A DNA stretch of 64,000 bases, from the IMG/VR virus record IMGVR_UViG_3300033066_001354; one strand, given 5' to 3'. A model generated the notes under the pieces. That model had not been told where the DNA came from and searched no databases. It was given only the letters and a program-made list of their open reading frames with translations. Positions 20,698 to 49,232 of this stretch are shown here, piece by piece; positions within the stretch are counted from its first letter, which is position 1; each line of letters starts with the position of its first letter. Made by a program: the position numbers and the translations under genes. The DNA is from an uncultured virus (IMG/VR IMGVR_UViG_3300033066_001354). Its lineage: Duplodnaviria; Heunggongvirae; Uroviricota; Caudoviricetes.

Positions 20698-21306
20698 ATG
20701 AGCATAGAGAGATTTAACTTCAAAGCAAAGCCTGGTGAGCCTGGTTTTAAGAAAGTCGAAAAAAACAAATACGGTCACACCGTACTTCATTCTGACGACA
20801 AGCGCGAGTCTAGTTTAGACGATAAAGTCGTGCTTACTTTCGACCCAGAAACAGGCTCACCAAGAGCAGACCTCAGTATTTGGGACACCCAAGAGATGAA
20901 AGACTTGGCACTAAAGCTCAATATGCCTTTGGACTCTAACAACGAGTCATCGACTGAAGAAGAAACCCAATCAACACAGATGATAACTGAAAAGGACATG
21001 GACGATTTGCTTCAAAACATTAAGGACGAAATGCCCAACGATGTCAAGTCAGCCTTTGCCGAAGAGCCCCAAGACAGTCGTGTCCGAAAAGTTGTTGTGA
21101 GCACCAATGACGACCCCGACGCAGACTTAGACTTCGAGACCAAAAAGTGCGCCGACGACTCATGTGGGACAGTATTACCGTTGGATGCCAAATTCTGCTC
21201 TCATTGTGGCAAATTGCAGACTGTGAACTCGTATTGTATCGAGTGTGGCAGAAAGTATCACGACAGGGAAAAATTCTGTCCAGACTGCGGTTGCGCACGC
21301 CAATAG
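20698..21306 (+). CDS. Double zinc ribbon protein
   Basis: C-terminal C..C, FCSHCG, YCIECG, FCPDCG; ends in TAG. Confidence 0.75.
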   Translation: MSIERFNFKAKPGEPGFKKVEKNKYGHTVLHSDDKRESSLDDKVVLTFDPETGSPRADLSIWDTQEMKDLALKLNMPLDSNNESSTEEETQSTQMITEKDMDDLLQNIKDEMPNDVKSAFAEEPQDSRVRKVVVSTNDDPDADLDFETKKCADDSCGTVLPLDAKFCSHCGKLQTVNSYCIECGRKYHDREKFCPDCGCARQ

Positions 21307-21329
21307 GACAAAGCACTCAGTTTGCAGAA
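21305..21329 (+). promoter_or_regulatory. Putative late promoter AGG-N19-GAA
   Basis: AGG ACAAAGCACTCAGTTTGCA GAA. Confidence 0.6.
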
Positions 21330-21342
21330 TGCAAACAATAGA

Positions 21343-22077
21343 ATGTCTTGGTACAAGCACAACATCACACGCACCTCTTTGCGCAAACACATGTTGCGCG
21401 TGGACTTGCGCGTATATCCAGGTGACATGTCACAAATGGCGAATCCGAACGATATAAATTCGGCGCTTAAATCCATGTTGACATCAGCTATTATTAAAGG
21501 ATTGGACATAGTTGGCATCGTGGCTCCAAACACACCACAAACCGGATGGATTGCCACAAGCATTGCTAAAGAGTCTGGACTTGACATTTATGTGGCTCCT
21601 GGCGAAGACTATTTGTGCGCAGACAAGTTTCACCTCGTCGTGTACAATTTAAAAGAACCAATGCACCTAAACCTTACAGTGGACAAGGCGATTAAATTCG
21701 CCCACGACAGAGGGGGATGGGTGATGGCCATAGACGTGACCAAGAGACAAGCACAGCACCTGAACAAGTTAAAAGACACTATTCAGGCTCCTGATGCCAT
21801 TGAGATTTATAACGACGTTTCGGGAGGCTATATGGATGTCAACGTTGAATATCCAAGGTTTGTCTCGTCAGCCTCAACATCTCCCAATGAGTTAGAAAAG
21901 AGCAAAACCTATACTTTGATTCACAGGACTGAAATGGAAAGCATGGGGTTGTTGCCTGAAGGCGAAGGTTCGGAGTATATTCCGCAGTATTTGCAGAAAG
22001 AAGAGCAAGAACAACAGCGTGAAGAACAGAACGCTGTGAACAACCAACAACAAGGGGCACAATTAAATGGCGCGTAA
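21343..22077 (+). CDS. Degenerate PHP-domain protein with MSWYK leader
   Basis: RVDLRVY, KGLDIVGI, PGED, DAIEIYN follow the PHP layout, but most metal-binding His/Asp are replaced. Confidence 0.6.
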   Translation: MSWYKHNITRTSLRKHMLRVDLRVYPGDMSQMANPNDINSALKSMLTSAIIKGLDIVGIVAPNTPQTGWIATSIAKESGLDIYVAPGEDYLCADKFHLVVYNLKEPMHLNLTVDKAIKFAHDRGGWVMAIDVTKRQAQHLNKLKDTIQAPDAIEIYNDVSGGYMDVNVEYPRFVSSASTSPNELEKSKTYTLIHRTEMESMGLLPEGEGSEYIPQYLQKEEQEQQREEQNAVNNQQQGAQLNGA

Positions 22078-37755: not shown

Positions 37756-38822
37756 GTCGTATGCTCAATATTGTTTAAAAATGTGTTCCACTCCCTGTCG
37801 AACAACTCCCATCTGGTCGCGGCCTCTGAACAGTAGGCGTTTACTTTTGTAATGTAGGCTGGTGAATTTTCAGCGTATTGCGCGGCTTTTACTAATGACG
37901 CACGAGTCAACTCAGAATATTCTGCCGATATTGGTAAAAGCCCGATTTCTTCCAGCAAAGACTTGTTTTTTGCGTGGTGTGTTATGTCGATACAAGGCAC
38001 GCCAGCGGCAAGGGCCGTCGTGGTCGAATGAAACCTCATTGAAACCACTAGGTCGCTGTTGGATATTTCCTTAATGAGTTCGTCCCATGTTTGAGGCTCG
38101 GCCACCCATTGGGCTTCGTTCTTTTGTTCCATCGTGCCGAAAACAAAAGCAGAAGGAATCCTGTCATCCACCACCTTGGCAGTGTGAGCCGACAAAAAGG
38201 ATACGTTCCATCCGAATTTTGTCATCCAGTCACAAAACTGTGCAATAATGCGACAGTTGTGCAAAGCTTGCACAAACTGGTTAACGTCAGTATTGTGAGT
38301 CAAATCGTTGAACACATAACTGTTCAAGAACACAGACATCTTTTTCTTTCCAAGCAGCCTGTTGTTCGATGGCACGACACCTGGGCGAAAACTAATGTCT
38401 GGCACAAGAGAAGCTGCAATACCAATGCCAGCCAAAATATCGGCAGACTGCCTTGTTCTTACCCACCACTTTGCTTTCAAGTTTTTAAGCTCTTCTGCAA
38501 ACGATGTGTTGTTCAACAACTCTGCTGTAACGTTCACATTGACAAACGCGATAGGTTTTTGCGCGGCCTTCAACTTGGTAAGACCGTCTCCTTTGAACAC
38601 CCAAAAATCTGGATTGATGATGCCACCACCACCGATGACTATAACGTCACAATCGAGATGCCCTCTTGACACCGCAGCATTTTCAATACCGTCAGCGCTT
38701 TTGTCGGAAAACACCTTGACTTCGTGCAAATCGTCAATCGACAATACTTTGGAGAGATGATGAGCCATTAAGTCATCTCCAAAGTTCTGTTTAGCGTAAA
38801 ATCCACACAAAGCAATTTTCAT
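37752..38822 (-). CDS. Polysaccharide pyruvyl transferase family protein
   Basis: GFY...NFGDDLM, IGGGGI, VR...S, PD, SMRFHS...AL..GVP. Confidence 0.85.
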   Translation of the reverse strand: MKIALCGFYAKQNFGDDLMAHHLSKVLSIDDLHEVKVFSDKSADGIENAAVSRGHLDCDVIVIGGGGIINPDFWVFKGDGLTKLKAAQKPIAFVNVNVTAELLNNTSFAEELKNLKAKWWVRTRQSADILAGIGIAASLVPDISFRPGVVPSNNRLLGKKKMSVFLNSYVFNDLTHNTDVNQFVQALHNCRIIAQFCDWMTKFGWNVSFLSAHTAKVVDDRIPSAFVFGTMEQKNEAQWVAEPQTWDELIKEISNSDLVVSMRFHSTTTALAAGVPCIDITHHAKNKSLLEEIGLLPISAEYSELTRASLVKAAQYAENSPAYITKVNAYCSEAATRWELFDREWNTFLNNIEHTT

Positions 38823-38906
38823 CTAGAAATGGTCGTTTTTTTACTGACCCACCTATAGATGGTATTGTGGAAAAAATTCAAAATTTCCTGTGCTCTTTAC
38901 GCTATT

Positions 38907-39164
38907 TTAATGGTTTCTTTTGCGCCGTTTTTCAGAGTGCTTTTTTACCTTGTCGAACAATTGGTCTCCACCCCTTTCAATGGCTTGACTGGAAAGAGTA
39001 GTGGACAACAAAGCGCTGACAAAGTATTCCTTGCGATGCGGTTTTACAGCACCGATTGATATAAATTTGTCTACTAAACTTTCAGCCGCTTTCCGTCTAC
39101 GATATTGCTCTGGACAGAAAACTCTTTGAAGGAACAATAAGACGACGCTTGGCACTGTCGCCAC
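38907..39164 (-). CDS. Hypothetical protein
   Basis: 85 aa filling a gap; start uncertain. Confidence 0.35.
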   Translation of the reverse strand: MATVPSVVLLFLQRVFCPEQYRRRKAAESLVDKFISIGAVKPHRKEYFVSALLSTTLSSQAIERGGDQLFDKVKKHSEKRRKRNH

Positions 39165-39216
39165 CTTGGTTGTTAGAGTTGTTCATCACTGCACCAATAC
39201 TGTCTTTACCAAACTT

Positions 39217-39726
39217 TTATGACTCTTCCTGGGGCGTTTCTGGGACATCTGGTGATTTTGACCTGTCTGCGCTTAACACGCCCTCCACCGTGGCGTTCGG
39301 CTCCCAGTTTCGCAACATTTGTTTAATCACTTCAATAGGCGTGCCGTGTCTGTTGCGTTTTGCCAATTCCTCTGCGTCAAAACGCCAAGGCGTGTCGGAC
39401 TCGTGAAACTCGATATCGTAACCGTTTGCGACACCTGACTCTACATATGGTTTCATTTCCCACAATTGCGTGTTCGTGCCATCAATGACAAGAGGGGACA
39501 AGCCTTGTTCCATAGCCTCTCTTGCCCTGTTTTGATTCCATTCGTGTGCTTGTCCAATTTTTGAACGGTCAAAGTCGTAGTCTGGGCCCCAGTAATCGTC
39601 GGTGGACATAGTGACACCACCCTTGCCCAATTCTTGAGCCTTGGTGCTTTTGCCGCTTCCGCTAACACCACGCATGATGACGAGCTTTCGACTTGATGAG
39701 CTTTTGTACCACATCTTTTCTTTCAT
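39217..39726 (-). CDS. AAA_33/N4BP2-like polynucleotide kinase
   Basis: IMRGVSGSGKST P-loop, STDDYW, AHEWNQ, VIDGTN, WEMKPY, RNRHG.P; start moved to 39726 (or 39714, MWYK). Confidence 0.85.
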   Translation of the reverse strand: MKEKMWYKSSSSRKLVIMRGVSGSGKSTKAQELGKGGVTMSTDDYWGPDYDFDRSKIGQAHEWNQNRAREAMEQGLSPLVIDGTNTQLWEMKPYVESGVANGYDIEFHESDTPWRFDAEELAKRNRHGTPIEVIKQMLRNWEPNATVEGVLSADRSKSPDVPETPQEES

Positions 39727-39812
39727 TGTGAATATTATGTCACAAAACCCTGCATTTGAGGAAACACAAGGTGTGAGCGGTCGTGCGACAGTAACATTGA
39801 TTAGGAGTACAA

Positions 39813-40007
39813 ATGGCAAAACTAACTATGTCCAGCAGCGAACCAGTCAAAATCATGCGACTGATGGAGCAAATGTTCCCTGGCGTCAAATTAGACGCTA
39901 TGGAAAAGATGATTGAAGGTGTCATCATCACTTGTGACGCTACTTTGACCAAGAAAATAGGTACAGACGAGTCCGTCACACTTCAAGTCATAATCACACC
40001 CGGCTAA
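39813..40007 (+). CDS. Hypothetical protein
   Basis: 64 aa with AGGAG RBS. Confidence 0.6.
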   Translation: MAKLTMSSSEPVKIMRLMEQMFPGVKLDAMEKMIEGVIITCDATLTKKIGTDESVTLQVIITPG

Positions 40008-40420
40008 TGATATTGCAATTCAATAAGACTGAAATAACCAAGCTCTTGTCATGGGTGCTTAGCGACCCCAAGAGCAAACCCGTTTTAGACATTATTGAAC
40101 AAAACGTCACTATGAACGGCGATATCACTTTCAAGAAAAACTTGAAACTTGGCAATGTCATGATAAGAGTGTTGATTTATCCAATTGAAGGCGGAGATTT
40201 GGAAATCAACATCAAAGACGCTTCGATTGCAGGTTTTAGCGTCTTCGGCATTGTCCGCAAAAAAGCGGGTGAAATGATAGTCGCGGCACTTGGGCAACAC
40301 TTGACGAAGTGTAAAGTCTGGAAAAACGGCAAAGGCAATATACAGTTGCACACTCCTGGTGTAACTTTTGAACAATTCGGCATCGTTGGCGAAGATGTGC
40401 TGTTAGAACTATCTGTATAA
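40007..40420 (+). CDS. Hypothetical protein
   Basis: 137 aa, TAATG-coupled. Confidence 0.65.
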   Translation: MILQFNKTEITKLLSWVLSDPKSKPVLDIIEQNVTMNGDITFKKNLKLGNVMIRVLIYPIEGGDLEINIKDASIAGFSVFGIVRKKAGEMIVAALGQHLTKCKVWKNGKGNIQLHTPGVTFEQFGIVGEDVLLELSV

Positions 40421-41101
40421 CTGCGGGTGACCGTCACCAATCTGTTGGTTTTGCATCTCTTGGTATAGCGCCCAATAACGCTGTTGAGCCTCCGCCATTT
40501 CATTTTGAATTTGCAGTTGGCGTGCGTTTTGCACTGTCTGGTCTGTGGTCAAACCTTGCCTAGATTGTTGGTAAGAATTTGCCAAGTCTTGCATAGTCGG
40601 CCCCTGTTGTGTGGTTTGACGCCCGTCTGGGCCTGTCGTAACCTTGAACAGTGGGTTTAAAGGTATGTTCAACAATTGTTCCTTCACCGCGTTGGCGTCA
40701 AATTGTCCAGTTTGCGGCGAACTGCTGTTGCCAGTGTACCAGCCTTGATATCCGCTTGTGTTTGCCGGGCCTGTGTATGGATTGTACGTCCCTTGAGGAC
40801 TGTTGAAAGGCACCGAATTGGAAAAAGGAGCCCTTGCTGTGTCTTTAATACTTGGGATGTTTGCAGCCCAATTGGGATATTGGGTGTTTTGTACAGCTTG
40901 TTGCGGCGACTGTTGGGCGGGTGGCGGATTCTGTTGCGGCTGTTGTGCAGTCCCTGCGGCCGAATTTGGAGTCCACCCTGCTTGACCAGGCATTTGTGCT
41001 TGTCTTACAAGGTTTGTCAACGTGTCAGCCTCGACATACATGCCGTGCTTGTCTAATTCGTCTGCCATGTCAAGCAGTTTTTTAGCTATCGACAAAAACA
41101 T
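40409..41101 (-). CDS. Gln/Pro-rich probable virion cargo protein with LD..G...AD.LT leader
   Basis: MFLSIAKKLLDMADELDKHGMYVEADTLTNLVRQAQMPG; GGAGG RBS; late promoter. Confidence 0.65.
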   Translation of the reverse strand: MFLSIAKKLLDMADELDKHGMYVEADTLTNLVRQAQMPGQAGWTPNSAAGTAQQPQQNPPPAQQSPQQAVQNTQYPNWAANIPSIKDTARAPFSNSVPFNSPQGTYNPYTGPANTSGYQGWYTGNSSSPQTGQFDANAVKEQLLNIPLNPLFKVTTGPDGRQTTQQGPTMQDLANSYQQSRQGLTTDQTVQNARQLQIQNEMAEAQQRYWALYQEMQNQQIGDGHPQLYR

Positions 41102-41122
41102 AGCGCCTCCATTGAAGTTGTT

Positions 41123-41147
41123 TTCTTCGAACAGAGGCGCTATTCCT
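41123..41147 (-). promoter_or_regulatory. Putative late promoter AGG-N19-GAA
   Basis: AGG AATAGCGCCTCTGTTCGAA GAA. Confidence 0.6.
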
Positions 41148-41152
41148 TTAGC

Positions 41153-41461
41153 TTAAGCCCACAACTTATATTTGCGGAAAGCGTTTCTGGACTTACCCTG
41201 CAACGGCTGGGAGCACAATGCGGTATAGCCCATGTCATCGTCTGGTTCATGAAACTTGTGCGTCTCAATTCCAGCTTCTGTCAACCTTGCCTCAGCTTCC
41301 AACAAATCTTCTTCGTTGGCAACTTGGCACAACACCATAAAAGTGTCTGGGTCGGCTTTGAATTTCAAGCCTGCTTCATAGCAAACATGACCGACTTGCA
41401 CGATTTGGTCTGGCACTGGAATATCTGTCCGAACCAAAACATAAACATAAGTGTTCTCCAC
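41153..41461 (-). CDS. Pth2-like peptidyl-tRNA hydrolase domain protein
   Basis: YVLVRTDI....QIVQVGH, VL.V.NEE.L, F.EPD, TA....P, KL at the C-terminus. Confidence 0.75.
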   Translation of the reverse strand: MENTYVYVLVRTDIPVPDQIVQVGHVCYEAGLKFKADPDTFMVLCQVANEEDLLEAEARLTEAGIETHKFHEPDDDMGYTALCSQPLQGKSRNAFRKYKLWA

Positions 41462-41483
41462 CTACAAATCCATGTTCGTCTTT

Positions 41484-41900
41484 TCACACATTGAGCTTCT
41501 CCCTGAGAAGTTCTTCCAGCGGAACGGGGTTATAGGCGCTTGCTCTTCGACCTTGAAGCAAACTTCTCACAAGATTGGACGCGAACGGTGTGTCAATCAG
41601 GGGTTCAAAGTCTGCATAAACCCCAGAACGCCCGAGGCTGTACATGGCTTCTGACAAAGTATAGTCTGCCCTTGCTCCGTTTGCAAGCTTTACTTCGCTT
41701 GAAACTGGCGTAAAGCATTTACGCCAGTCTTTGCCGCGCAACACGGCGTACAGAATATGATGTGCGAGAGTCAAAGAGCCTCCAGACTCTTTTTTGCTCT
41801 TCTGAAGTTCTTTCCAAAGCGATTGGACTTCAGAATAACAGTCTTGACGAATTTCTTCTTTGAAAAAGAAGGGTGTGATTTTTTTTGATAAAGTGTTCAT
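41484..41900 (-). CDS. Hypothetical protein (HHILYAVLRGK motif), first gene of the Pth2-like operon
   Basis: 138 aa; its AGGAG RBS lies in a hairpin. Confidence 0.7.
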   Translation of the reverse strand: MNTLSKKITPFFFKEEIRQDCYSEVQSLWKELQKSKKESGGSLTLAHHILYAVLRGKDWRKCFTPVSSEVKLANGARADYTLSEAMYSLGRSGVYADFEPLIDTPFASNLVRSLLQGRRASAYNPVPLEELLREKLNV

Positions 41901-41901
41901 T

Positions 41902-41945
41902 AGTGTCTCCTAGTAGTTGTAGTGTCGAAATTTGGAGGAGACACT
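41902..41945 (-). promoter_or_regulatory. Anti-Shine-Dalgarno hairpin
   Basis: AGTGTCTCCT (41945-41936) is perfectly complementary to AGGAGACACT (41911-41902), which contains the RBS of the 41900 gene. Confidence 0.8.
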
Positions 41946-42025
41946 TATGGCGGCGCTCGGTCGCCATAAGAAACTATGGCGTGGTCAACGAGCGACGAAT
42001 ATGGTTTGCGAAAGCCCTACAACAT
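41945..42025 (-). CDS. Leader peptide with in-frame UAG at codon 3 and a terminal RAPP arrest-like motif
   Basis: ATG TTG TAG GGC TTT CGC AAA CCA TAT TCG TCG CTC GTT GAC CAC GCC ATA GTT TCT TAT GGC GAC CGA GCG CCG CCA TAA = ML*GFRKPYSSLVDHAIVSYGDRAPP. Confidence 0.65.
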
Positions 42026-42073
42026 GATGTTATCTATTCTACAGTGTTTTGAACAAAGCAGTTCCCTGTTTTG

Positions 42074-42544
42074 TTACTTTTTAGGAAACTCCATTCCTTC
42101 TTGTCCGAGTTTTTCTCCAATTTTACGCAATATGTCCTGAATATCAAGGTTGGCTTTATCAACCACTTCTTGACTGTCTGGCTCAGTGCCCTGTAGTCCA
42201 CCCTGTTGTAATCCGCCGATAATTCCAAGAGCATTGCCAAGATATTCGTGCAACCTGTTGCAGCCATATTCGCTGTAAAATTCCGCACCCATGTAAATTG
42301 GGCCTGGTCGCATGAACGGGTCGCCCTCTTCGCGAACTTTTTGTTCCTCTTCTTCTGGGAACAAGACGCCAGTAATCAATCTGATTTTGAAAAATTGTTT
42401 TTCAATGTGTGCGATTAAAGTTTGCAACTTTTCTGCCGCTTCTTTCTCTTCGTCAGTGAGCTTGTCTGGATTGGCTCGATAGTTGTAGAGCAGATTTCGC
42501 ATAAACCAAATTTGCTCAGAAGTCGGATAGTAGTTGTCGAACAT
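42074..42544 (-). CDS. Hypothetical protein
   Basis: 156 aa, immediately downstream of a tRNA. Confidence 0.7.
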   Translation of the reverse strand: MFDNYYPTSEQIWFMRNLLYNYRANPDKLTDEEKEAAEKLQTLIAHIEKQFFKIRLITGVLFPEEEEQKVREEGDPFMRPGPIYMGAEFYSEYGCNRLHEYLGNALGIIGGLQQGGLQGTEPDSQEVVDKANLDIQDILRKIGEKLGQEGMEFPKK

Positions 42545-42562
42545 GTTTTTCTCTTTCTAAAG

Positions 42563-42648
42563 CGCCATAGACAGGATTCGAACCCGCGTAAACCTTGTGA
42601 GGGCCTTCTGTTTTAGAAACCGAGGCTCTACCGCTGAGCTACTATGGC
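42563..42648 (-). tRNA. tRNA with CUA anticodon (amber suppressor), long variable arm
   Basis: GCCATAG TA GCTC AGCGGTA GAGC C TCGGT TTCTAAA ACAGA AGGCCCTCACAAGGTTTAC GCGGG TTCGAAT CCTGT CTATGGC G; one mismatch in the anticodon stem; no encoded CCA. Confidence 0.8.
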
Positions 42649-42657
42649 ATTAGGCAT

Positions 42658-42683
42658 GTCAAAGGGGCAACAGCCCCTTTGAC
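42658..42683. other. 11-bp hairpin between pspA and the tRNA
   Basis: GTCAAAGGGGC-aaca-GCCCCTTTGAC; no U-tract. Confidence 0.6.
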
Positions 42684-42692
42684 GGATTGTTG

Positions 42693-43493
42693 TCAGTTGC
42701 CGCCCAACCTCTGGGACAGGGCGTTGAGTGCGTCGTCGGCACTTCCTGCCCCGGTATTGACAGAGACAGTCGCGGTTGGCGTTGTGGCGACAGGTTGTGC
42801 CAGACCAAGGCGTTGTTCAAGGTCTGAGAGAGCGGTTTGAGCTTCCATGTCATGAGTTGCCGATTCCAATTCCATCACACGACCCGCAAGCGAGTTGCTA
42901 GAAAGTTCGGTACGGGCAGCAGCCTCAGACTGCATGTTTTGAACTTTTTCAGCAGCGGCACCAAAACCTTGATTAATGTCAGTGACGTTGAATTCGTCCA
43001 AAGCTTTAGTGATGGCGTTTTGAACCTGGGCGCTTTTGTACTGAGCCTTAAGTGAAGCGGCTTCAGCCAATTTATTGCGGAATTGTGCCTGTTGGTTTTC
43101 AAGCGCCTTTTTAACGTTGTCACAAGCAGCAGTGGCTTGAGCAAGGGTCGCTTGAAGTGTGGTAAGTTGTGCCTGGTTGGTCTGTAGTTCACCAGCAAAT
43201 TGCAGGGCAAGTTGATTGAACTTGATATACTCAGGAGTCCCAGGAGCAAATGCGTTTCTTTGCTTCAAAGCAACACCAGCTTGAGCTTCATTCTTTTTGA
43301 TTTGCGCCTGGACGTTGCTTACCATCGCCTGAAGGTTGTTCTTCTGGGTAAGGGCCTGTACACCGCGTTCTTGATTTTTGATGAGAGCCGCCTGCATGTC
43401 GCGCTTGGCTTGGTCAATCATAATCATCGGGTCTTCAACCCTGTCCATTGCAAAACCGAAAAGGGCTTTGAGCCACGTGAAAAATCGTTTCAT
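42693..43493 (-). CDS. pspA: PspA/IM30 (Vipp1/ESCRT-III-like) family protein
   Basis: MKRFFTWLKALFG..MDRVEDP..MIDQAKRDMQ; coiled coil; A..AL; E.KV..MQSEA.A..EL; start moved to 43493. Confidence 0.85.
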   Translation of the reverse strand: MKRFFTWLKALFGFAMDRVEDPMIMIDQAKRDMQAALIKNQERGVQALTQKNNLQAMVSNVQAQIKKNEAQAGVALKQRNAFAPGTPEYIKFNQLALQFAGELQTNQAQLTTLQATLAQATAACDNVKKALENQQAQFRNKLAEAASLKAQYKSAQVQNAITKALDEFNVTDINQGFGAAAEKVQNMQSEAAARTELSSNSLAGRVMELESATHDMEAQTALSDLEQRLGLAQPVATTPTATVSVNTGAGSADDALNALSQRLGGN

Positions 43494-43507
43494 GTTTATA
43501 CCTTTGA

Positions 43508-43579
43508 TGACCCAGGTGGGAATCGAACCCACGACCGATAGATTTAGAATCCACTGCTCCACCATTGAGCTACCGGGCC
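43508..43579 (-). tRNA. tRNA with CUA anticodon (amber suppressor), short variable loop
   Basis: GGCCCGG TA GCTC AATGGTG GAGC A GTGGA TTCTAAA TCTAT CGGTC GTGGG TTCGATT CCCAC CTGGGTC A; no encoded CCA. Confidence 0.85.
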
Positions 43580-43589
43580 ATTTCGCACA

Positions 43590-43598
43590 ATGATACCA
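43590..43598 (-). promoter_or_regulatory. Extended -10 element for the tRNA-pspA-tRNA unit
   Basis: TGGTATCAT about 10 nt upstream of the tRNA 5' end. Confidence 0.5.
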
Positions 43599-43680
43599 CA
43601 TTTTGCGAAGTTTTTTGAGGAAAATCACGAAACGCAATTGAGCGCCCGCTTTGGGGGCGGTTTCCCCGCCCCCATGAAGA

Positions 43681-43836
43681 CTAGGAGGATGCAGGCACGT
43701 TGAGTAATTGCGCCTGCCCGGACATCAGTGGATATGCGCTCCAAAAAGCATCCACGTCAAATTCGGGCCTGTCTGTCTCAGCGGGTTTTCGCTCCTCGGA
43801 TGAGGATGAACTTAGTTCCTGGGTATCTTTGTTCAT
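43681..43836 (-). CDS. Small hypothetical ORF (51 aa) ending in TAG
   Basis: GAGGTG RBS; MNKDTQELSSSSSEERKPAETDRPEFDVDAFWSAYPLMSGQAQLLNVPASS. Confidence 0.4.
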   Translation of the reverse strand: MNKDTQELSSSSSEERKPAETDRPEFDVDAFWSAYPLMSGQAQLLNVPASS

Positions 43837-43911
43837 CTTGCGCACCTCGCCTATCTATTTTAGCATAATGTTAACACAGTTCCTCGCGGTTTTTATCTGT
43901 ATAAACTACAG

Positions 43912-44346
43912 GTGGAGAAAAAAACTTCTTGCAACATCGGAACGCCGTTCTCGGCAAACAACATGTACGCTCCCGTCGCCAGAGGCGTGTTGAAGCGGAC
44001 GAAAAAATATTTGCAATGGATTGAGACCAATCAACCAATTGTTGAGCGCGGACTAGACCCGGCACAAAATTTTCCTGTTGTCGTTTCAGTGACTGTGGTC
44101 GGTGGTAGGGGATTTAACGCCATGACTAAAAACGATGTTGACAACCTTAAGAAACCCCTTTGCGACCTTTTAGTAAGGGCGAAAATAGTCCCCGACGATG
44201 AGAAGAAATACATCTCCAGCGTGCAAGTGAATTATTTACCAGGCCCAAGCTCGAAAGGAGAACCGCTCACCCAAATCAGGTACGAAGAGCCTGAAAGTGA
44301 AGATTCTGTCGAATGGACAGCGCCTTATTTGTGGGAAAAAGAATAG
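43912..44346 (+). CDS. rusA: RusA-like Holliday junction resolvase
   Basis: PFSANNMY; DVDNLKKPLCDLL...IVPDD. Confidence 0.75.
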   Translation: MEKKTSCNIGTPFSANNMYAPVARGVLKRTKKYLQWIETNQPIVERGLDPAQNFPVVVSVTVVGGRGFNAMTKNDVDNLKKPLCDLLVRAKIVPDDEKKYISSVQVNYLPGPSSKGEPLTQIRYEEPESEDSVEWTAPYLWEKE

Positions 44347-44867
44347 TGCTTCTTATCGCCAGCCCAAGCTAGTGTGAACGAATCAAAGTCTAAAGGCATT
44401 TTTGGAACATCCACCTGTGGCAAGTCCGAATCATTGTCCAAATAAGCTAGAGTAATGTGAGGAGTGAAGCCATGCGTCTTGTCCAACTCTATACCAAGCG
44501 ACTCCATTGTCTCAACCAGTTCTTGGCGCATTTCTGGAAGACTCGGCGCGTCATAAGAAGCGTAGAAAGGTTTGGAATCGCCGTCTCCAGCAAAACACCC
44601 CAAACCACCGACTTCGCCCTTAATTTTGGCGTACTTTTCGGACATGGCTTCTAAAGCCGCTTCAACTAAGTCACGTTTGTCTTTCAAATCATCTGCTTTG
44701 CCAAGATAGAGCAATGTGACGTGCAAATTGTCAACAGGCTCAAGTTTGTCACCGTCAGCAAGGTCGGACTGAGAAAGCATCAATTTTTTGCTCTTCTCTT
44801 TGGGCAACCATAAAGCCACAATGACACTTGTGTGTTTTTCGGCCGTCACGACGTTTCGATACCACAT
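44325..44867 (-). CDS. 2H phosphoesterase (Acb1/ThpR-like) with MWYR..VTAE leader
   Basis: LHVTLLYLG and FTPHITLAY (two HxT motifs); start moved to 44867. Confidence 0.85.
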   Translation of the reverse strand: MWYRNVVTAEKHTSVIVALWLPKEKSKKLMLSQSDLADGDKLEPVDNLHVTLLYLGKADDLKDKRDLVEAALEAMSEKYAKIKGEVGGLGCFAGDGDSKPFYASYDAPSLPEMRQELVETMESLGIELDKTHGFTPHITLAYLDNDSDLPQVDVPKMPLDFDSFTLAWAGDKKHYSFSHK

Positions 44868-44876
44868 ACACAACTA

Positions 44877-44901
44877 TTCTACAAGATAGACAATCAAGCC
44901 T
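44877..44901 (-). promoter_or_regulatory. Putative late promoter AGG-N19-GAA
   Basis: AGG CTTGATTGTCTATCTTGTA GAA. Confidence 0.6.
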
Positions 44902-45418
44902 GTGTTTTGATTTTGTCCACAAATTCTTGCAAAGTGACCGGGCGCTCACACGGTTGTGAGTACATATTTTTGTTTTCTGATATTAATTTCATGATTGCCT
45001 CTTCGTCCGTCAAAGAGTGAACCATGTTTTTGTACTCAGACATGTCTGCAAGCCTTGCTTCGCACCTTGGGTCGAACGGAGTGTACCATTCAGCAGACAA
45101 GTTTGGATGTATATAAGCGTCGTAGGTGAAATACCTGATGCGATATTCGGTAGAGTCCAAAAATTCGCGCCCTCCAAGTACGATAGCTGCGGCGCGGTGA
45201 TGTCCGTCGTGCAAGAACAATCTGCCATCTTCGAAAGATGTCACCTCAATCAACGGAGAGACTTTGCCGCGACTTTGGTGTTTGCTGAGGCAATTGATAG
45301 TGAAAAACCCACCGTCTTTGACAAATTCGACCATGCGCGACAGTTGGACACGGTTTCTTATTTCGTGTTGAGTCACAAAAAGGTCGTTTATACTCAGCAT
45401 TGTCAGTATAATCTTCAT
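44894..45418 (-). CDS. ParB/Srx N-terminal-like domain protein
   Basis: L..TQ; I.V......LFLHDGHHRAAA; start uncertain. Confidence 0.65.
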   Translation of the reverse strand: MKIILTMLSINDLFVTQHEIRNRVQLSRMVEFVKDGGFFTINCLSKHQSRGKVSPLIEVTSFEDGRLFLHDGHHRAAAIVLGGREFLDSTEYRIRYFTYDAYIHPNLSAEWYTPFDPRCEARLADMSEYKNMVHSLTDEEAIMKLISENKNMYSQPCERPVTLQEFVDKIKTQA

Positions 45419-45446
45419 TATGTCACTTTTGAGGATATAATAAGGC

Positions 45447-46595
45447 ATGCAAGCAACTTTTCTTTATTCGCCAGGTTCATTGCTGTACACATTTGGCCCA
45501 AGCCACCCGTACAATTCCGAGCGTCTTCGCAGGACAGTCCTGGTGTTAGAGCACTTCAAATTAAAGGGCGTTTGCGGTGCCCGTCCCGCGACTGAAGCGC
45601 AGTTAAAGTCACTTCACGGTGATGACTACATCGACATATTGATGAAAGTCTCCGAAGACCCAACATTAGACATTGGATATAGTATTGGACTGTCAAACGG
45701 CGACACTCCAGCGTTTGAAGGTATGTACGAAGCGGCTTGCAACGTCGCTGGAGGCACAATCGAGGCGGCGGAATCTGTATTGTGCGGAGACACCATTGCT
45801 TTTCATCTTGCTGGCGGGCTCCATCACTCGCAAAAGCACCGAGCAAGCGGGTTTTGTTTCATCAACGATATCGCGCTAGGCATCAATGTGTTGAAAGCCA
45901 AGTACAAACGCATTGCTTATGTGGACATCGACCTCCACCACGGAGACGGTGTTGAGGCTATCTTCCACAACGACCCGGGTGTGTTGACTGTCAGCATCCA
46001 TCAGTTTGGCAAAGGTTTTTATCCAGGAACGGGAAATTCGGACGATACTGACGACCACGGCACTGTGGTCAACATACCATTAAAGGGTGGTACTGGCGGC
46101 GACACCTGGCTGCGTGCTTTTCGAGATGGCGTCATGCCAGCTTTGGAAATATACAAACCTGAAGTCATTGTTTTACAAATGGGTGTAGACGCGCACATGA
46201 AAGACCCCCTAGGGACATTGCGCATTAGGACTCAAGACTGGTATGAGGCCGTGAAAGCCATTAGAGACTTTGGAGCACCAATCGTCGCTTTGGGCGGCGG
46301 TGGATACTTTCCAGCCAACCCGCCTCGTATGTGGACTGCGGCAGTACACATACTTTTAAACGAACCGCTGCCAGCCTCAATGCCGCAAAAACTTGTCAAC
46401 GAATGGAAAACCGCTGAATTTGATTTCATCGACCCTGACTCAAGCGCTTATTGTGACGTAATGTCAAACGTTGGAGGATGGGGCAGAGGGGACGATTTAA
46501 GAACGCCTTCAGACGCACTTAATCGCCATTTGAAAGTATTGCGGGAATCCGTGTTTGAGAGGCTGCAACATACCAGTGAAGCGTTTCCGGTATAG
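45447..46595 (+). CDS. acuC: Zn-dependent deacetylase (HDAC/AcuC family)
   Basis: HP...R, GGLHH, GFCFIND, YVDIDLHHGDG, YPGTG, GVDAH..DPL, GGGGY all intact. Confidence 0.9.
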   Translation: MQATFLYSPGSLLYTFGPSHPYNSERLRRTVLVLEHFKLKGVCGARPATEAQLKSLHGDDYIDILMKVSEDPTLDIGYSIGLSNGDTPAFEGMYEAACNVAGGTIEAAESVLCGDTIAFHLAGGLHHSQKHRASGFCFINDIALGINVLKAKYKRIAYVDIDLHHGDGVEAIFHNDPGVLTVSIHQFGKGFYPGTGNSDDTDDHGTVVNIPLKGGTGGDTWLRAFRDGVMPALEIYKPEVIVLQMGVDAHMKDPLGTLRIRTQDWYEAVKAIRDFGAPIVALGGGGYFPANPPRMWTAAVHILLNEPLPASMPQKLVNEWKTAEFDFIDPDSSAYCDVMSNVGGWGRGDDLRTPSDALNRHLKVLRESVFERLQHTSEAFPV

Positions 46596-47058
46596 CTCGG
46601 TCGATAAACAGCACGCCGTCTAAGTGGTCAATTTCGTGCTGAACCACTACAGCTTCTGTGTCTGACAGGTTCAAAACGGTTTCCTTGCCGTGCGGCGAAA
46701 CACCAGTCACAACAATGTTTTTATACCTTTTTACGTCTCCCCACAACCCGGGGATGCTTAAACAACCCTCTTCTCCACAATACTCGCCAGAAGCCTCTTG
46801 TACGGTCGGGTTTATCAACACGAAACGAGTGTCGCGCCTGACCATTATCACTCGTTTACTGACACCAATCTGAGGAGCGGCAAGTCCTACACCTTTTGTA
46901 TCTCGCAATACAGAAGACATTTTTTCGATTAATTTCGATACTTCACTAATGTTTTCCACTGGCAACGCCGTTTGTCGCAAAACAGTGTCTGGATATTTGA
47001 CTATTCCGTTCTTGACTTTAAACAGAGACGCGAACGATTTATCAACGACGACTTCCAT
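46519..47058 (-). CDS. def: Peptide deformylase
   Basis: GVGLAAPQIG, EGCLS, QHEIDHLDG. Confidence 0.95.
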   Translation of the reverse strand: MEVVVDKSFASLFKVKNGIVKYPDTVLRQTALPVENISEVSKLIEKMSSVLRDTKGVGLAAPQIGVSKRVIMVRRDTRFVLINPTVQEASGEYCGEEGCLSIPGLWGDVKRYKNIVVTGVSPHGKETVLNLSDTEAVVVQHEIDHLDGVLFIDRAIPETLHWYVAASQTRIPAILSNGD

Positions 47059-48593: not shown

Positions 48594-49013
48594 TCAAGCG
48601 CAAATATATTCGGCAAGTTTGTGCAAAAGCCATCCGGCAAAACGAGAGCCGTGGACTTTAGGGTCGTAGCCGACGCTCATAGCCGCTTTCACCAGAGCAT
48701 AACCTTCAAGCGGGTGACACACCAATTCTTTCTCAAGCACAACCACCTGTTCGTAGAATTTAGTTTCGTTTTCTTTGTAAACTTCGTCTGGTATAGCTTC
48801 TATTTCATCGTCTGACATTTCAAAGCACATGTCTAGGACTGGAGTGGCAGTGATGACAAACGTCGGGTCGTTGCTTTTCACAAGCCCCAAAGCGCCCTTA
48901 GGCCACTTGTCTGGCACATTGTCGTTCATGGAACGCATCAACAAAAAACCCGGCAAGAACTCGTCCTCTCCGTCAACGACGTATACAGCCTCAGTGGTGC
49001 ATTGTAGACACAT
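48594..49013 (-). CDS. Hypothetical protein (N-terminal CxxC)
   Basis: 139 aa; TATACT 6 nt before the ATG. Confidence 0.65.
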   Translation of the reverse strand: MCLQCTTEAVYVVDGEDEFLPGFLLMRSMNDNVPDKWPKGALGLVKSNDPTFVITATPVLDMCFEMSDDEIEAIPDEVYKENETKFYEQVVVLEKELVCHPLEGYALVKAAMSVGYDPKVHGSRFAGWLLHKLAEYICA

Positions 49014-49037: not shown

Positions 49038-49232
49038 CTATATCTTCTTAAACTTAGCTTCGCATTCAGATTTTGTCAAAAACCAGGCAATTGTGAAAAC
49101 ACCATTACAATGAAGACAAATAAATTGTCCGTATCTACAATTGAAGCTCGGTTTTTTATGTATCTGAAAGTCAGGACAATAACAAAATGGACATGTACTT
49201 ATAGGAATTGAGTTTTTGATTGATTCGCTCAT
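49038..49232 (-). CDS. Small zinc-ribbon protein
   Basis: CPFC...CLHC; ATGA overlap with the upstream gene. Confidence 0.55.
   Translation of the reverse strand: MSESIKNSIPISTCPFCYCPDFQIHKKPSFNCRYGQFICLHCNGVFTIAWFLTKSECEAKFKKI

Follow-up and report, generated by a model that had tools for sequence, protein, structure and literature searches.

What the suppressor transfer RNAs (tRNAs) of bacteriophages act upon is a question raised by a 64,000-nucleotide (nt) stretch of DNA, hereafter the window, from an uncultured virus of the Caudoviricetes (IMG/VR record IMGVR_UViG_3300033066_001354). No target was known for the suppressor tRNAs of phages that use the standard code, a point on which the XacN1 genome paper is explicit (PMC5852040). 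In the window, two tRNA genes with the amber-reading anticodon CUA stand ahead of a short leader open reading frame (ORF) that contains an early UAG, a gene for an uncharacterized protein of 138 residues (p138), and a gene for a protein resembling the peptidyl-tRNA hydrolase Pth2. Comparison with related loci, of which well over a hundred in phages and bacteria share the design, points, at a probability of roughly 0.7, to a four-part stop-codon-suppression switch, which is composed of the suppressor tRNA(s), the leader, p138 and the Pth2-like protein. The candidate target of the suppressor tRNAs would thus adjoin them, in the form of a leader and a gene that are completed only via readthrough.

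Along the minus strand, the locus is constructed of a 75-nt tRNA gene with an ordinary short variable loop (43506-43580; ARAGORN; Rfam RF00005, 63.9 bits), a PspA-like gene, an 87-nt tRNA gene with a long variable arm (42562-42648; ARAGORN; Rfam RF00005, 52.9 bits, the variable region bearing a 16-nt insertion), a 156-residue ORF, a spacer of 173 nt, p138 (41900-41484) and the Pth2-like gene, which runs to 41153. Both CUA tRNAs are genuine, and they are located on the same strand as the leader, about 1.5 and 0.5 kilobases (kb) upstream of it, as an initial annotation of this stretch had stated. The former is approximately 81% identical to tRNA-Lys genes from three Roseobacter phages, and an Rfam scan of 38000-47000 at E<=1 returned just the two tRNAs and no T-box or other leader family.

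The leader ORF (41945-42025, minus strand) reads M-L-UAG-GFRKPYSSLVDHAIVSYGD-RAPP-UAA and consists of ATG (42025-42023), TTG, the in-frame amber codon TAG at codon 3 (42019-42017), nineteen sense codons, the codons CGA GCG CCG CCA (41959-41948) for the putative ribosome-arrest motif RAPP, and the stop codon TAA (41947-41945). All of these elements, which had been proposed in the initial annotation, are present in the sequence; no in-frame ATG, GTG or TTG is found between TAG and RAPP, so that the motif could indeed be reached only by readthrough of this first gate. The last A of the leader stop codon is also the first base of the 5' arm AGTGTCTCCT (41936-41945, minus strand) of a hairpin, whose 3' arm AGGAGACACT (41902-41911, minus strand) holds the Shine-Dalgarno sequence AGGAG of p138 and ends 1 nt before its ATG (41900). 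The resulting perfect stem of 10 base pairs (bp), likewise foreseen as a lock on AGGAG, is present in the minimum-free-energy fold (-38.3 kcal/mol, z -3.2, with none of 200 shuffles as good) and begins 8 nt after the first Pro codon; as in arrest leaders, the ribosome-binding site is hidden in a stem-loop within reach of a stalled ribosome. As a separate observation, the TAA of the 156-residue ORF (42074-42076, minus strand) shares its reading frame with the leader ATG, which lies 48 nt further downstream, and no stop intervenes, possibly by chance.

Relatives were collected via the Pth2-like protein, which gave 4 and then 41 viral-contig loci and 118 metagenome-contig relatives, of which 80 were kept; once duplicates and loci offering under 150 nt of upstream sequence had been dropped, 89 unique loci were left. 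The strict leader pattern required ATG, 0-12 sense codons, a stop codon X, at most 30 codons (sense or X) and then [RK]xPP or PP-stop, located no more than 200 nt upstream of the operon start. It was found in 63 of the 89 loci, compared with a mean of 0.95 (maximum 5, n=200) in shuffled sequences and 0 in the reverse complement, and by locus type it occurred in 43 of the 48 loci with p138, 6 of the 15 that have a different upstream ORF and 14 of the 26 in which the Pth2-like gene stands alone. The early stop stands at codon 3 in 46 of these leaders, some leaders carry 4-11 codons ahead of it, and an in-frame ATG, GTG or TTG lies between the stop and the motif in only 8. Two in-frame TAGs precede RxPP in some leaders (L070, L165 and L170), an arrangement that would result in a steeper gate.

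The identity of the gate codon was found to follow the anticodon of the neighboring tRNA. TAG is accompanied by a CUA tRNA in 44 of the 63 leaders and by no suppressor tRNA in the available DNA in 14, while TGA is accompanied by a UCA tRNA in four (L016, L106, L109 and L112) and by none in one; mismatches are absent, and the same pairing of TGA leader and UCA tRNA recurs in L081, a locus not covered by the strict pattern. The conservation of leader, early stop and tRNA in homologous loci, which had been named as the check to be made on the initial annotation, is borne out. As for a sequencing error in the TAG, a contig of sequencing run X1 (depth 208), which spans 41100-42651, carries five differences and none within the leader; among contigs compared from four runs, only that of X1 cleanly spans the leader, and it is not independent of the window, since X1 is possibly the sample from which the window came. 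Both tRNAs are retained in L001 and L047, the closest relatives. Because the tRNA 3' end lies 5-39 nt ahead of the leader ATG in 33 of 43 loci, tRNA and sensor would usually form one transcription unit, and the window, judged against these loci, represents an expanded layout with tRNA-leader gaps of 0.5 and 1.5 kb.

The thirty-eight RxPP leaders comprise RAPP (17), RGPP (7), RSPP (6), RDPP (4) and RPPP (4), which are encoded by 31 different codon quadruplets, where Arg is specified by AGA in 20, CGC in 9, CGA in 5 and CGT in 4, and the Pro codons use all four third bases. Since synonymous codons vary to this extent, with both AGA and CGN serving for Arg, RxPP is under selection at the protein level, the level at which the R-A/G-P-P(G) core of arrest peptides is kept. 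According to published work, RAPP and RGPP are robust arrest motifs, refractory to elongation factor P and tolerant of varied and short upstream sequence, while RSPP and RDPP are partly permissive (PMC12992588), and the state of the ribosome stalled at RAPP or RGPP has been described (PMC10951233). The spectrum of the leader motifs agrees with the mutagenesis and proteome statistics in the first of these sources (PMC12992588).

The hairpin was also traced across the relatives. For each locus, the longest perfect helix was sought that joins the 36 nt following the first Pro codon to the final 22 nt ahead of the start codon. This helix averages 9.1 bp, compared with 5.9 bp with a shuffled 5' arm; counted from the first nucleotide of that Pro codon, the 5' arm starts 5-10 nt downstream in 46 of 63 loci. 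When covariation was counted in an alignment of 33 loci on a hand-named helix (columns 15-25 with 84-94), 87.7% of the helix cells were found to pair, versus 79.0% in shuffled alignments (none of 500 reaching it) and 29-54% in slid controls, and compensatory changes were observed in 8 of the 11 helix pairs, amounting to 30 cells. RNAalifold predicted no pairs on the alignment running from the R codon to the start, because the loop lengths vary. By analogy with SecM-type leaders, we infer that a ribosome parked at RAPP would cover the 5' arm and free the ribosome-binding site.

A second conserved in-frame UAG, which the initial annotation overlooked, is located in the Pth2-like ORF itself. Directly before the Pth2-like coding sequence (41153-41461, minus strand; 102 residues from GTG) and in frame with it stands ATG GAT TTG TAG (M-D-L-UAG; 41462-41473, minus strand), whose ATG lies 10 nt past the p138 stop and whose amber codon (41464-41462) is codon 4; judged from the sequence, the ORF probably comprises 106 codons from ATG 41473 with the UAG read through. 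In a set of 127 unique loci, the 25 codons ahead of the conserved R-x-D were inspected for their last in-frame stop, which was TAG in 79, TAA in 11, TGA in 10 and absent in 27 loci. A second gate, defined as an ATG at most 8 codons before a TAG that is at most 14 codons before R-x-D, with no ATG after it, is carried by 67 of them, and in most of the 67 the gate stop is situated exactly 10 codons before the Arg of R-x-D. As a control, 1867 stop-to-stop ORFs with a length of 90 codons or more were drawn from these loci, and a TAG with an ATG at most 8 codons before it was found in 7.4% of them, a figure that is itself an upper limit, as the Pth2-like ORFs were included.

The predicted model of the Pth2-like protein has a mean predicted local distance difference test (pLDDT) score of 96.6 and adopts the Pth2 alpha/beta fold, in keeping with the earlier claim of a Pth2-like product behind the 138-residue gene. 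Of the top 12 Foldseek matches in the PDB, eleven were chains of Pth2, either solved or from structural genomics, and the other was Atu0240, a protein with the Pth2 fold. A Foldseek probability of 1.00 to several Pth2 structures and the template modeling scores of 0.72-0.81, which include those to 1wn2, 1q7s, 2zv3, 3erj and 1xty, relate the predicted fold to that of archaeal and eukaryotic Pth2 (Bit1/PTRH2). A weak profile similarity extends over the first 65-70 positions: the family profile retrieved one peptidyl-tRNA hydrolase among the PDB sequences at E 2.9e-4 and others at 0.04-0.9, and R-x-D, V-Q and H are common to the family and Pth2. In contrast with Pth2, the cassette protein shares 12-18% identity with it, is about 15 residues shorter, places Gln-Gln opposite the Lys-Lys of 24bt_A, and matched no Pfam family, PF01981 included, at E<=0.01. 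Beyond this gene, a 9-bp inverted repeat, TAGCGCCTC / GAGGCGCTA, was noticed at 41101-41142 (minus strand), 10 nt past the Pth2-like stop codon; its 3' arm masks most of the GGAGG ribosome-binding site and the first ATG base of the next gene (40409-41101), which encodes a Gln/Pro-rich protein of 230 residues and is kept in L001 too. By its position, the repeat suggests a third, coupled gene.

The other protein, p138 (41484-41900, minus strand), belongs to an uncharacterized family, whose alignment of 40 homologues shows the conserved core H-x-x-Y-x-x-L-x-G-K-D-W and of which 853 representative clusters were found at E<=1e-3 in a library of 1.84 billion proteins. Its predicted model is all-helical (pLDDT 86.4), and no match to the fold was returned by Foldseek (best E 2.8), VIA-align (best Z 3.6) or the ESM Atlas (best 0.86, below its own threshold). 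Searches of Pfam, PHROG, NCBIfam and PADLOC gave no credible family; DUF7219 was considered and rejected as sub-threshold (E 2.6e-4 and 21 bits, where the cut-off is 27, for one member of the 40). A scan of viral contigs with p138 alone found no relatives, while the Pth2-like protein and the alignments did retrieve loci, and the prediction of a complex between p138 and the Pth2-like protein scored 0.00, an outcome that gives no answer and carries no weight either way.

The same design has been met in cultured phages. A tblastn search against phage records yielded 37 with the Pth2-like gene, and in the five gated records examined the ORF starts as M-A-Q-UAG in GAP32, M-T-UAG in ME3, M-L-UAG in RsoM2USA (ATGTTGTAG) and Arash, and M-K-UAG before a fused ORF in XacN1. 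A CUA tRNA was present in all four phages checked, namely ME3, where it is annotated, GAP32, RsoM2USA and Arash, where it is annotated as tRNA-Phe. The hosts of these four phages are Cronobacter, Salmonella, Ralstonia and Acinetobacter. Because of the early UAG, the Pth2-like gene is truncated or unannotated in the public records of GAP32 (L126), ME3 (L128), RsoM2USA (L129) and Arash (L131). A counter-example of a sort is provided by Klebsiella phage RaK2 (L127, 2363-2803), whose Pth2-like ORF has no early stop and is directly preceded by a tRNA-Leu(UAA) where its relatives have the suppressor tRNA.

Outside phages, a scan with the p138 alignment of one genome per prokaryotic species found 24 loci (L162-L185), all of which are in Chloroflexota assemblies. 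A CUA tRNA was identified in 23 of them by ARAGORN and in the 24th by eye, the strict leader in 22, with the other two fitting by eye with TTG or GTG starts, and the Pth2-like gene in 23. Release factor 1 (RF1; prfA) and release factor 2 (RF2) were both detected above curated cut-offs in the five carriers checked (G001-G005), so that UAG would be a contested stop in these bacteria. The full cassette was observed in bacterial chromosomes of several Chloroflexota orders, with flanking genes that vary between loci, and the metagenomic loci are flanked by ordinary bacterial genes. Some features of the cassette tRNA were recorded in passing: in L184 (2270-2342) and in similar soil and Chloroflexota tRNAs, the D arm is unusual, having a stem of 5 bp and a loop of 5 nt that lacks the customary GG, and in many copies the lowest pair of the anticodon stem is an A-C mismatch. 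In one Chloroflexota genome, the cassette tRNA is at most 73% identical to any of 32 other tRNAs taken from that genome.

The mechanism proposed from these elements would proceed as follows. Ribosomes would initiate on the leader and reach the UAG at codon 3, where, if RF1 wins, termination would occur after two residues, the hairpin would stay closed and the p138 ribosome-binding site would remain hidden. If instead the phage CUA tRNA decodes the UAG, the ribosome would proceed to R-A-P-P, and the parked ribosome would cover the 5' arm and free AGGAG for other ribosomes to translate p138. As the Pth2-like gene starts with M-D-L-UAG, it would be made only after a second readthrough; p138 being gated via the leader and the Pth2-like protein via its own codon 4, the output of both would increase as UAG is decoded more often by the suppressor tRNA relative to termination by RF1. 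This logic of UAG readthrough, parking at RAPP and melting of the stem is in essence that of the initial annotation, and leader conservation, the RxPP codons, the covarying stem, the match between gate and anticodon and the presence of RF1 in all five carriers argue for it. At the level of sequence comparison, conservation of the elements, protein-level selection on RxPP, covariation of the stem and covariation of gate codon and anticodon are established, and from these we infer readthrough and stalling.

Several points weigh against this interpretation. The window leader has no Shine-Dalgarno sequence at its ATG and no adjoining sigma-70-type promoter call, so its initiation is an assumption, a caveat that had been attached to the initial annotation and still stands; L048, L049 and L002 carry GGAG 6-7 nt before the leader ATG. 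The shuffle control for the leader pattern keeps base composition only, and the related loci are not independent of one another, many of them being Chloroflexota relatives. The strict pattern is missed in 26 of the 89 loci. These misses add information rather than contradict it: several have a non-ATG leader start or a slightly different motif, and four carry an amber codon inside the Pth2-like ORF instead. The RSPP leader of L075 lacks an early stop, and in L008, L102 and L026 the RxPP or RPP-stop motif is in the +1 frame relative to ATG..TAG, which could reflect four-base (UAGA) decoding, an indel or an error of assembly; in all three an A follows the TAG, as it does in 16 of 58 in-frame TAG leaders. 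In PP-stop leaders, the PP could be a by-product of RNA pairing, since the Pro codons overlap a CCUCC-like anti-Shine-Dalgarno sequence. In many loci the nascent chain at the predicted stall would be very short, with about 11 residues, and arrest by such short chains is undocumented in the literature examined. At the second gate, the GTG at 41461 directly after the UAG is a possible start that would bypass it, and hydrolase activity is not assured, because the family has Gln where solved Pth2 has Lys-Lys.

What the switch would be for can be stated with low confidence. The preferred purpose is that the Pth2-like hydrolase, with p138, may act on suppression-dependent acyl- or peptidyl-tRNA, its dose being tied to suppressor activity, which corresponds to the rescue module of the initial annotation. 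A broader and doubtful proposal is that the cassette is a mobile, self-contained suppression controller, made up of a non-standard suppressor tRNA, a double stop gate and a two-protein effector, in which the leader would gauge the balance between release factor and suppressor and feed back via hydrolysis of the suppressor acyl-tRNA or release of ribosomes stalled at the stop or RAPP.

The main rival retains the same wiring and reads it as negative feedback, in which the Pth2-like enzyme, with p138, would de-acylate or otherwise disable the suppressor tRNA, so that higher readthrough would yield more enzyme and less charged suppressor and suppression would be held at a low set point; alternatively, the enzyme would clear the stalled leader ribosome. 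It is favored by the finding that, within the 64 kb of phage covered, no amber-dependent genes were seen other than those of the cassette, the Pth2-like ORF being the sole amber-prefixed ORF in the window without a nearby ATG after the TAG. The authors of the XacN1 genome paper failed to identify targets for the CUA tRNAs of that phage (PMC5852040). Moreover, tRNA, sensor and enzyme travel as a compact unit, also in Chloroflexota chromosomes that keep RF1, and the Pth2 fold belongs to an enzyme whose target is the acyl-tRNA ester bond. The substrate of the cassette enzyme, however, is hypothetical, the Lys-Lys of solved Pth2 lies opposite Gln-Gln in the family profile, and a pure homeostat lacking any other target offers no obvious benefit. 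On balance, a homeostat of this kind is considered unlikely, and the suppression-gated switch is preferred, its tRNA-directed purpose with low confidence.

Far less probable is the explanation that ATG-TTG-TAG forms a mini-ORF of two codons, complete in itself, and that regulation falls on its own termination or on peptidyl-tRNA drop-off, with RAPP untranslated and the hairpin opened otherwise. Two-codon minigenes cause peptidyl-tRNA drop-off, ATG followed by one sense codon and a stop is the commonest arrangement (46 of 63), and a gene like that of a peptidyl-tRNA hydrolase lies downstream, all of which would suit such a mini-ORF. It leaves unexplained, however, why in-frame RxPP is kept via synonymous codons, why the spacing from RxPP to the stem is fixed, why TAG covaries with CUA and TGA with UCA, why leaders exist with 4-11 codons before the stop, and why the same early amber recurs within the Pth2-like ORF.

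Just as improbable is a recoded genetic code, in which UAG would be a plain sense codon and the leader and the Pth2-like gene ordinary ORFs with nothing conditional about them. Salmonella, Cronobacter, Ralstonia and Acinetobacter, the hosts of the cultured carriers, use the standard code, and the five Chloroflexota carriers checked possess RF1. The window itself does not behave as that of a TAG-recoded phage: its coding density is 93.3% under the standard code versus 92.9% with TAG as sense, TAG terminates 10 of 66 long ORFs, 8 of which extend just 1-32 codons to the next stop, and a single ORF is amber-prefixed without a nearby ATG. Recoding could nevertheless call upon the two CUA tRNAs that are encoded and upon the stop-codon recoding known in phages (bioRxiv 10.1101/2021.08.26.457843). 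Finally, the idea that the leader arises by chance from a non-coding spacer, in which only the hairpin, or nothing, matters, is hardly credible and close to refuted by conservation, for although the window leader lacks a Shine-Dalgarno sequence and its 9-mer ATGTTGTAG is not significant alone (1 match in the window versus 0.39 expected), the leader, RxPP-codon, helix, Chloroflexota and second-gate comparisons all oppose it.

The genes around the cassette resemble those of a large phage, with PspA/IM30, a 2H/LigT phosphoesterase, an AAA_33 kinase-like protein, a peptide deformylase, a histone-deacetylase-family protein and long structural-type ORFs among the gene content of the window. The cassette is embedded in a cluster of RNA- and translation-related genes (39217-47058), to which the AAA_33 polynucleotide-kinase-like protein, the LigT/2H phosphoesterase, the deformylase and the histone-deacetylase-family protein belong. 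A DNA comparison of the window with phage records found matches of tRNA size only and no close relative. Elsewhere in the window, two pairs of ORFs are joined in frame across a TAG with no other stop, namely 20698-21306 with 21322-22077 (plus strand; an extension of 256 codons) and 49038-49232 with 48594-49013 (minus strand; 147 codons); family searches on both pairs gave no evidence for single proteins, and they could be readthrough fusions or chance.

Among known systems, prfB, the gene for RF2, offers a parallel for the gates: the outcome at its early in-frame UGA, release factor versus +1 frameshift, sets the amount of protein. In the cassette, too, the competition of a release factor with alternative decoding at an early in-frame stop would set the output, and the Pth2-like product would require bypass of the UAG at codon 4, a gate present in 67 of 127 loci. 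Unlike prfB, the alternative is decoding by a suppressor tRNA, the product is not a release factor, and no frameshift site is present in most loci: the zero frame is followed in the 63 leaders and 67 ORFs, while L008, L102 and L026 need +1.

The leader itself resembles the RAPP/RGPP arrest peptides (ApdA, ApdP and ApcA, with SecM and MifM as paradigms), in that a short upstream ORF ends in R-A/G-P-P and a stalled ribosome would be positioned to open the stem-loop over the next ribosome-binding site; its motif spectrum (RAPP, RGPP, some RSPP and RDPP) fits the arrest-competent set given in published work (PMC12992588, PMC10951233, PMC7897499). It differs from the ApdA/ApdP/ApcA class in several respects. 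The cassette leaders are far shorter (about 8-40 codons) and have no signal or membrane segment, the window leader, of 24 residues, lacking a hydrophobic segment altogether, and no sec or yidC gene lies downstream. What would be regulated is arrival at the motif, through readthrough of the early stop, and not release of the arrest by pulling force, and a dedicated tRNA gene belongs to the cassette.

An engineered counterpart exists as well, since a TAG placed in a leader peptide (the 'Uaa transcriptional switch') makes downstream expression depend on an amber-suppressor tRNA (PMC6412442). In contrast with the cassette, which is natural, would act on translation initiation and has a second gate inside an ORF, these switches are man-made and rely on transcription attenuation or Rho and on orthogonal tRNA-synthetase pairs. 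With stop-codon-recoded phages, the cassette shares the presence of phage CUA tRNAs and the idea that suppression times or conditions particular genes; it differs from them in that the window is not recoded and the ambers stand among the first codons of a single leader and a single gene beside the tRNAs. A literature search, outside which most subscription journals fell, turned up neither a natural arrest leader gated by a stop codon and linked to a tRNA nor an in-ORF amber in this Pth2-like family.

Arrest leaders with hidden ribosome-binding sites were already known, as were early stop codons that respond to the level of a release factor (prfB) and engineered leader ambers (PMC6412442). Within the literature searched, the cassette would be the first natural regulatory leader with stop-codon suppression as its input, and it would extend RAPP-type arrest to a new signal. 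Two uncharacterized families, p138 and a divergent branch of Pth2, would be linked to translation termination, and the idea is directly testable, because the cassette is present in cultured phages of laboratory-tractable hosts. If the cassette is indeed a suppression controller, standard-code phages and Chloroflexota would run a tunable, low-level reassignment of UAG, or of UGA in the variants with UCA tRNAs, which would represent a natural precursor state of genetic-code change equipped with its own regulator.

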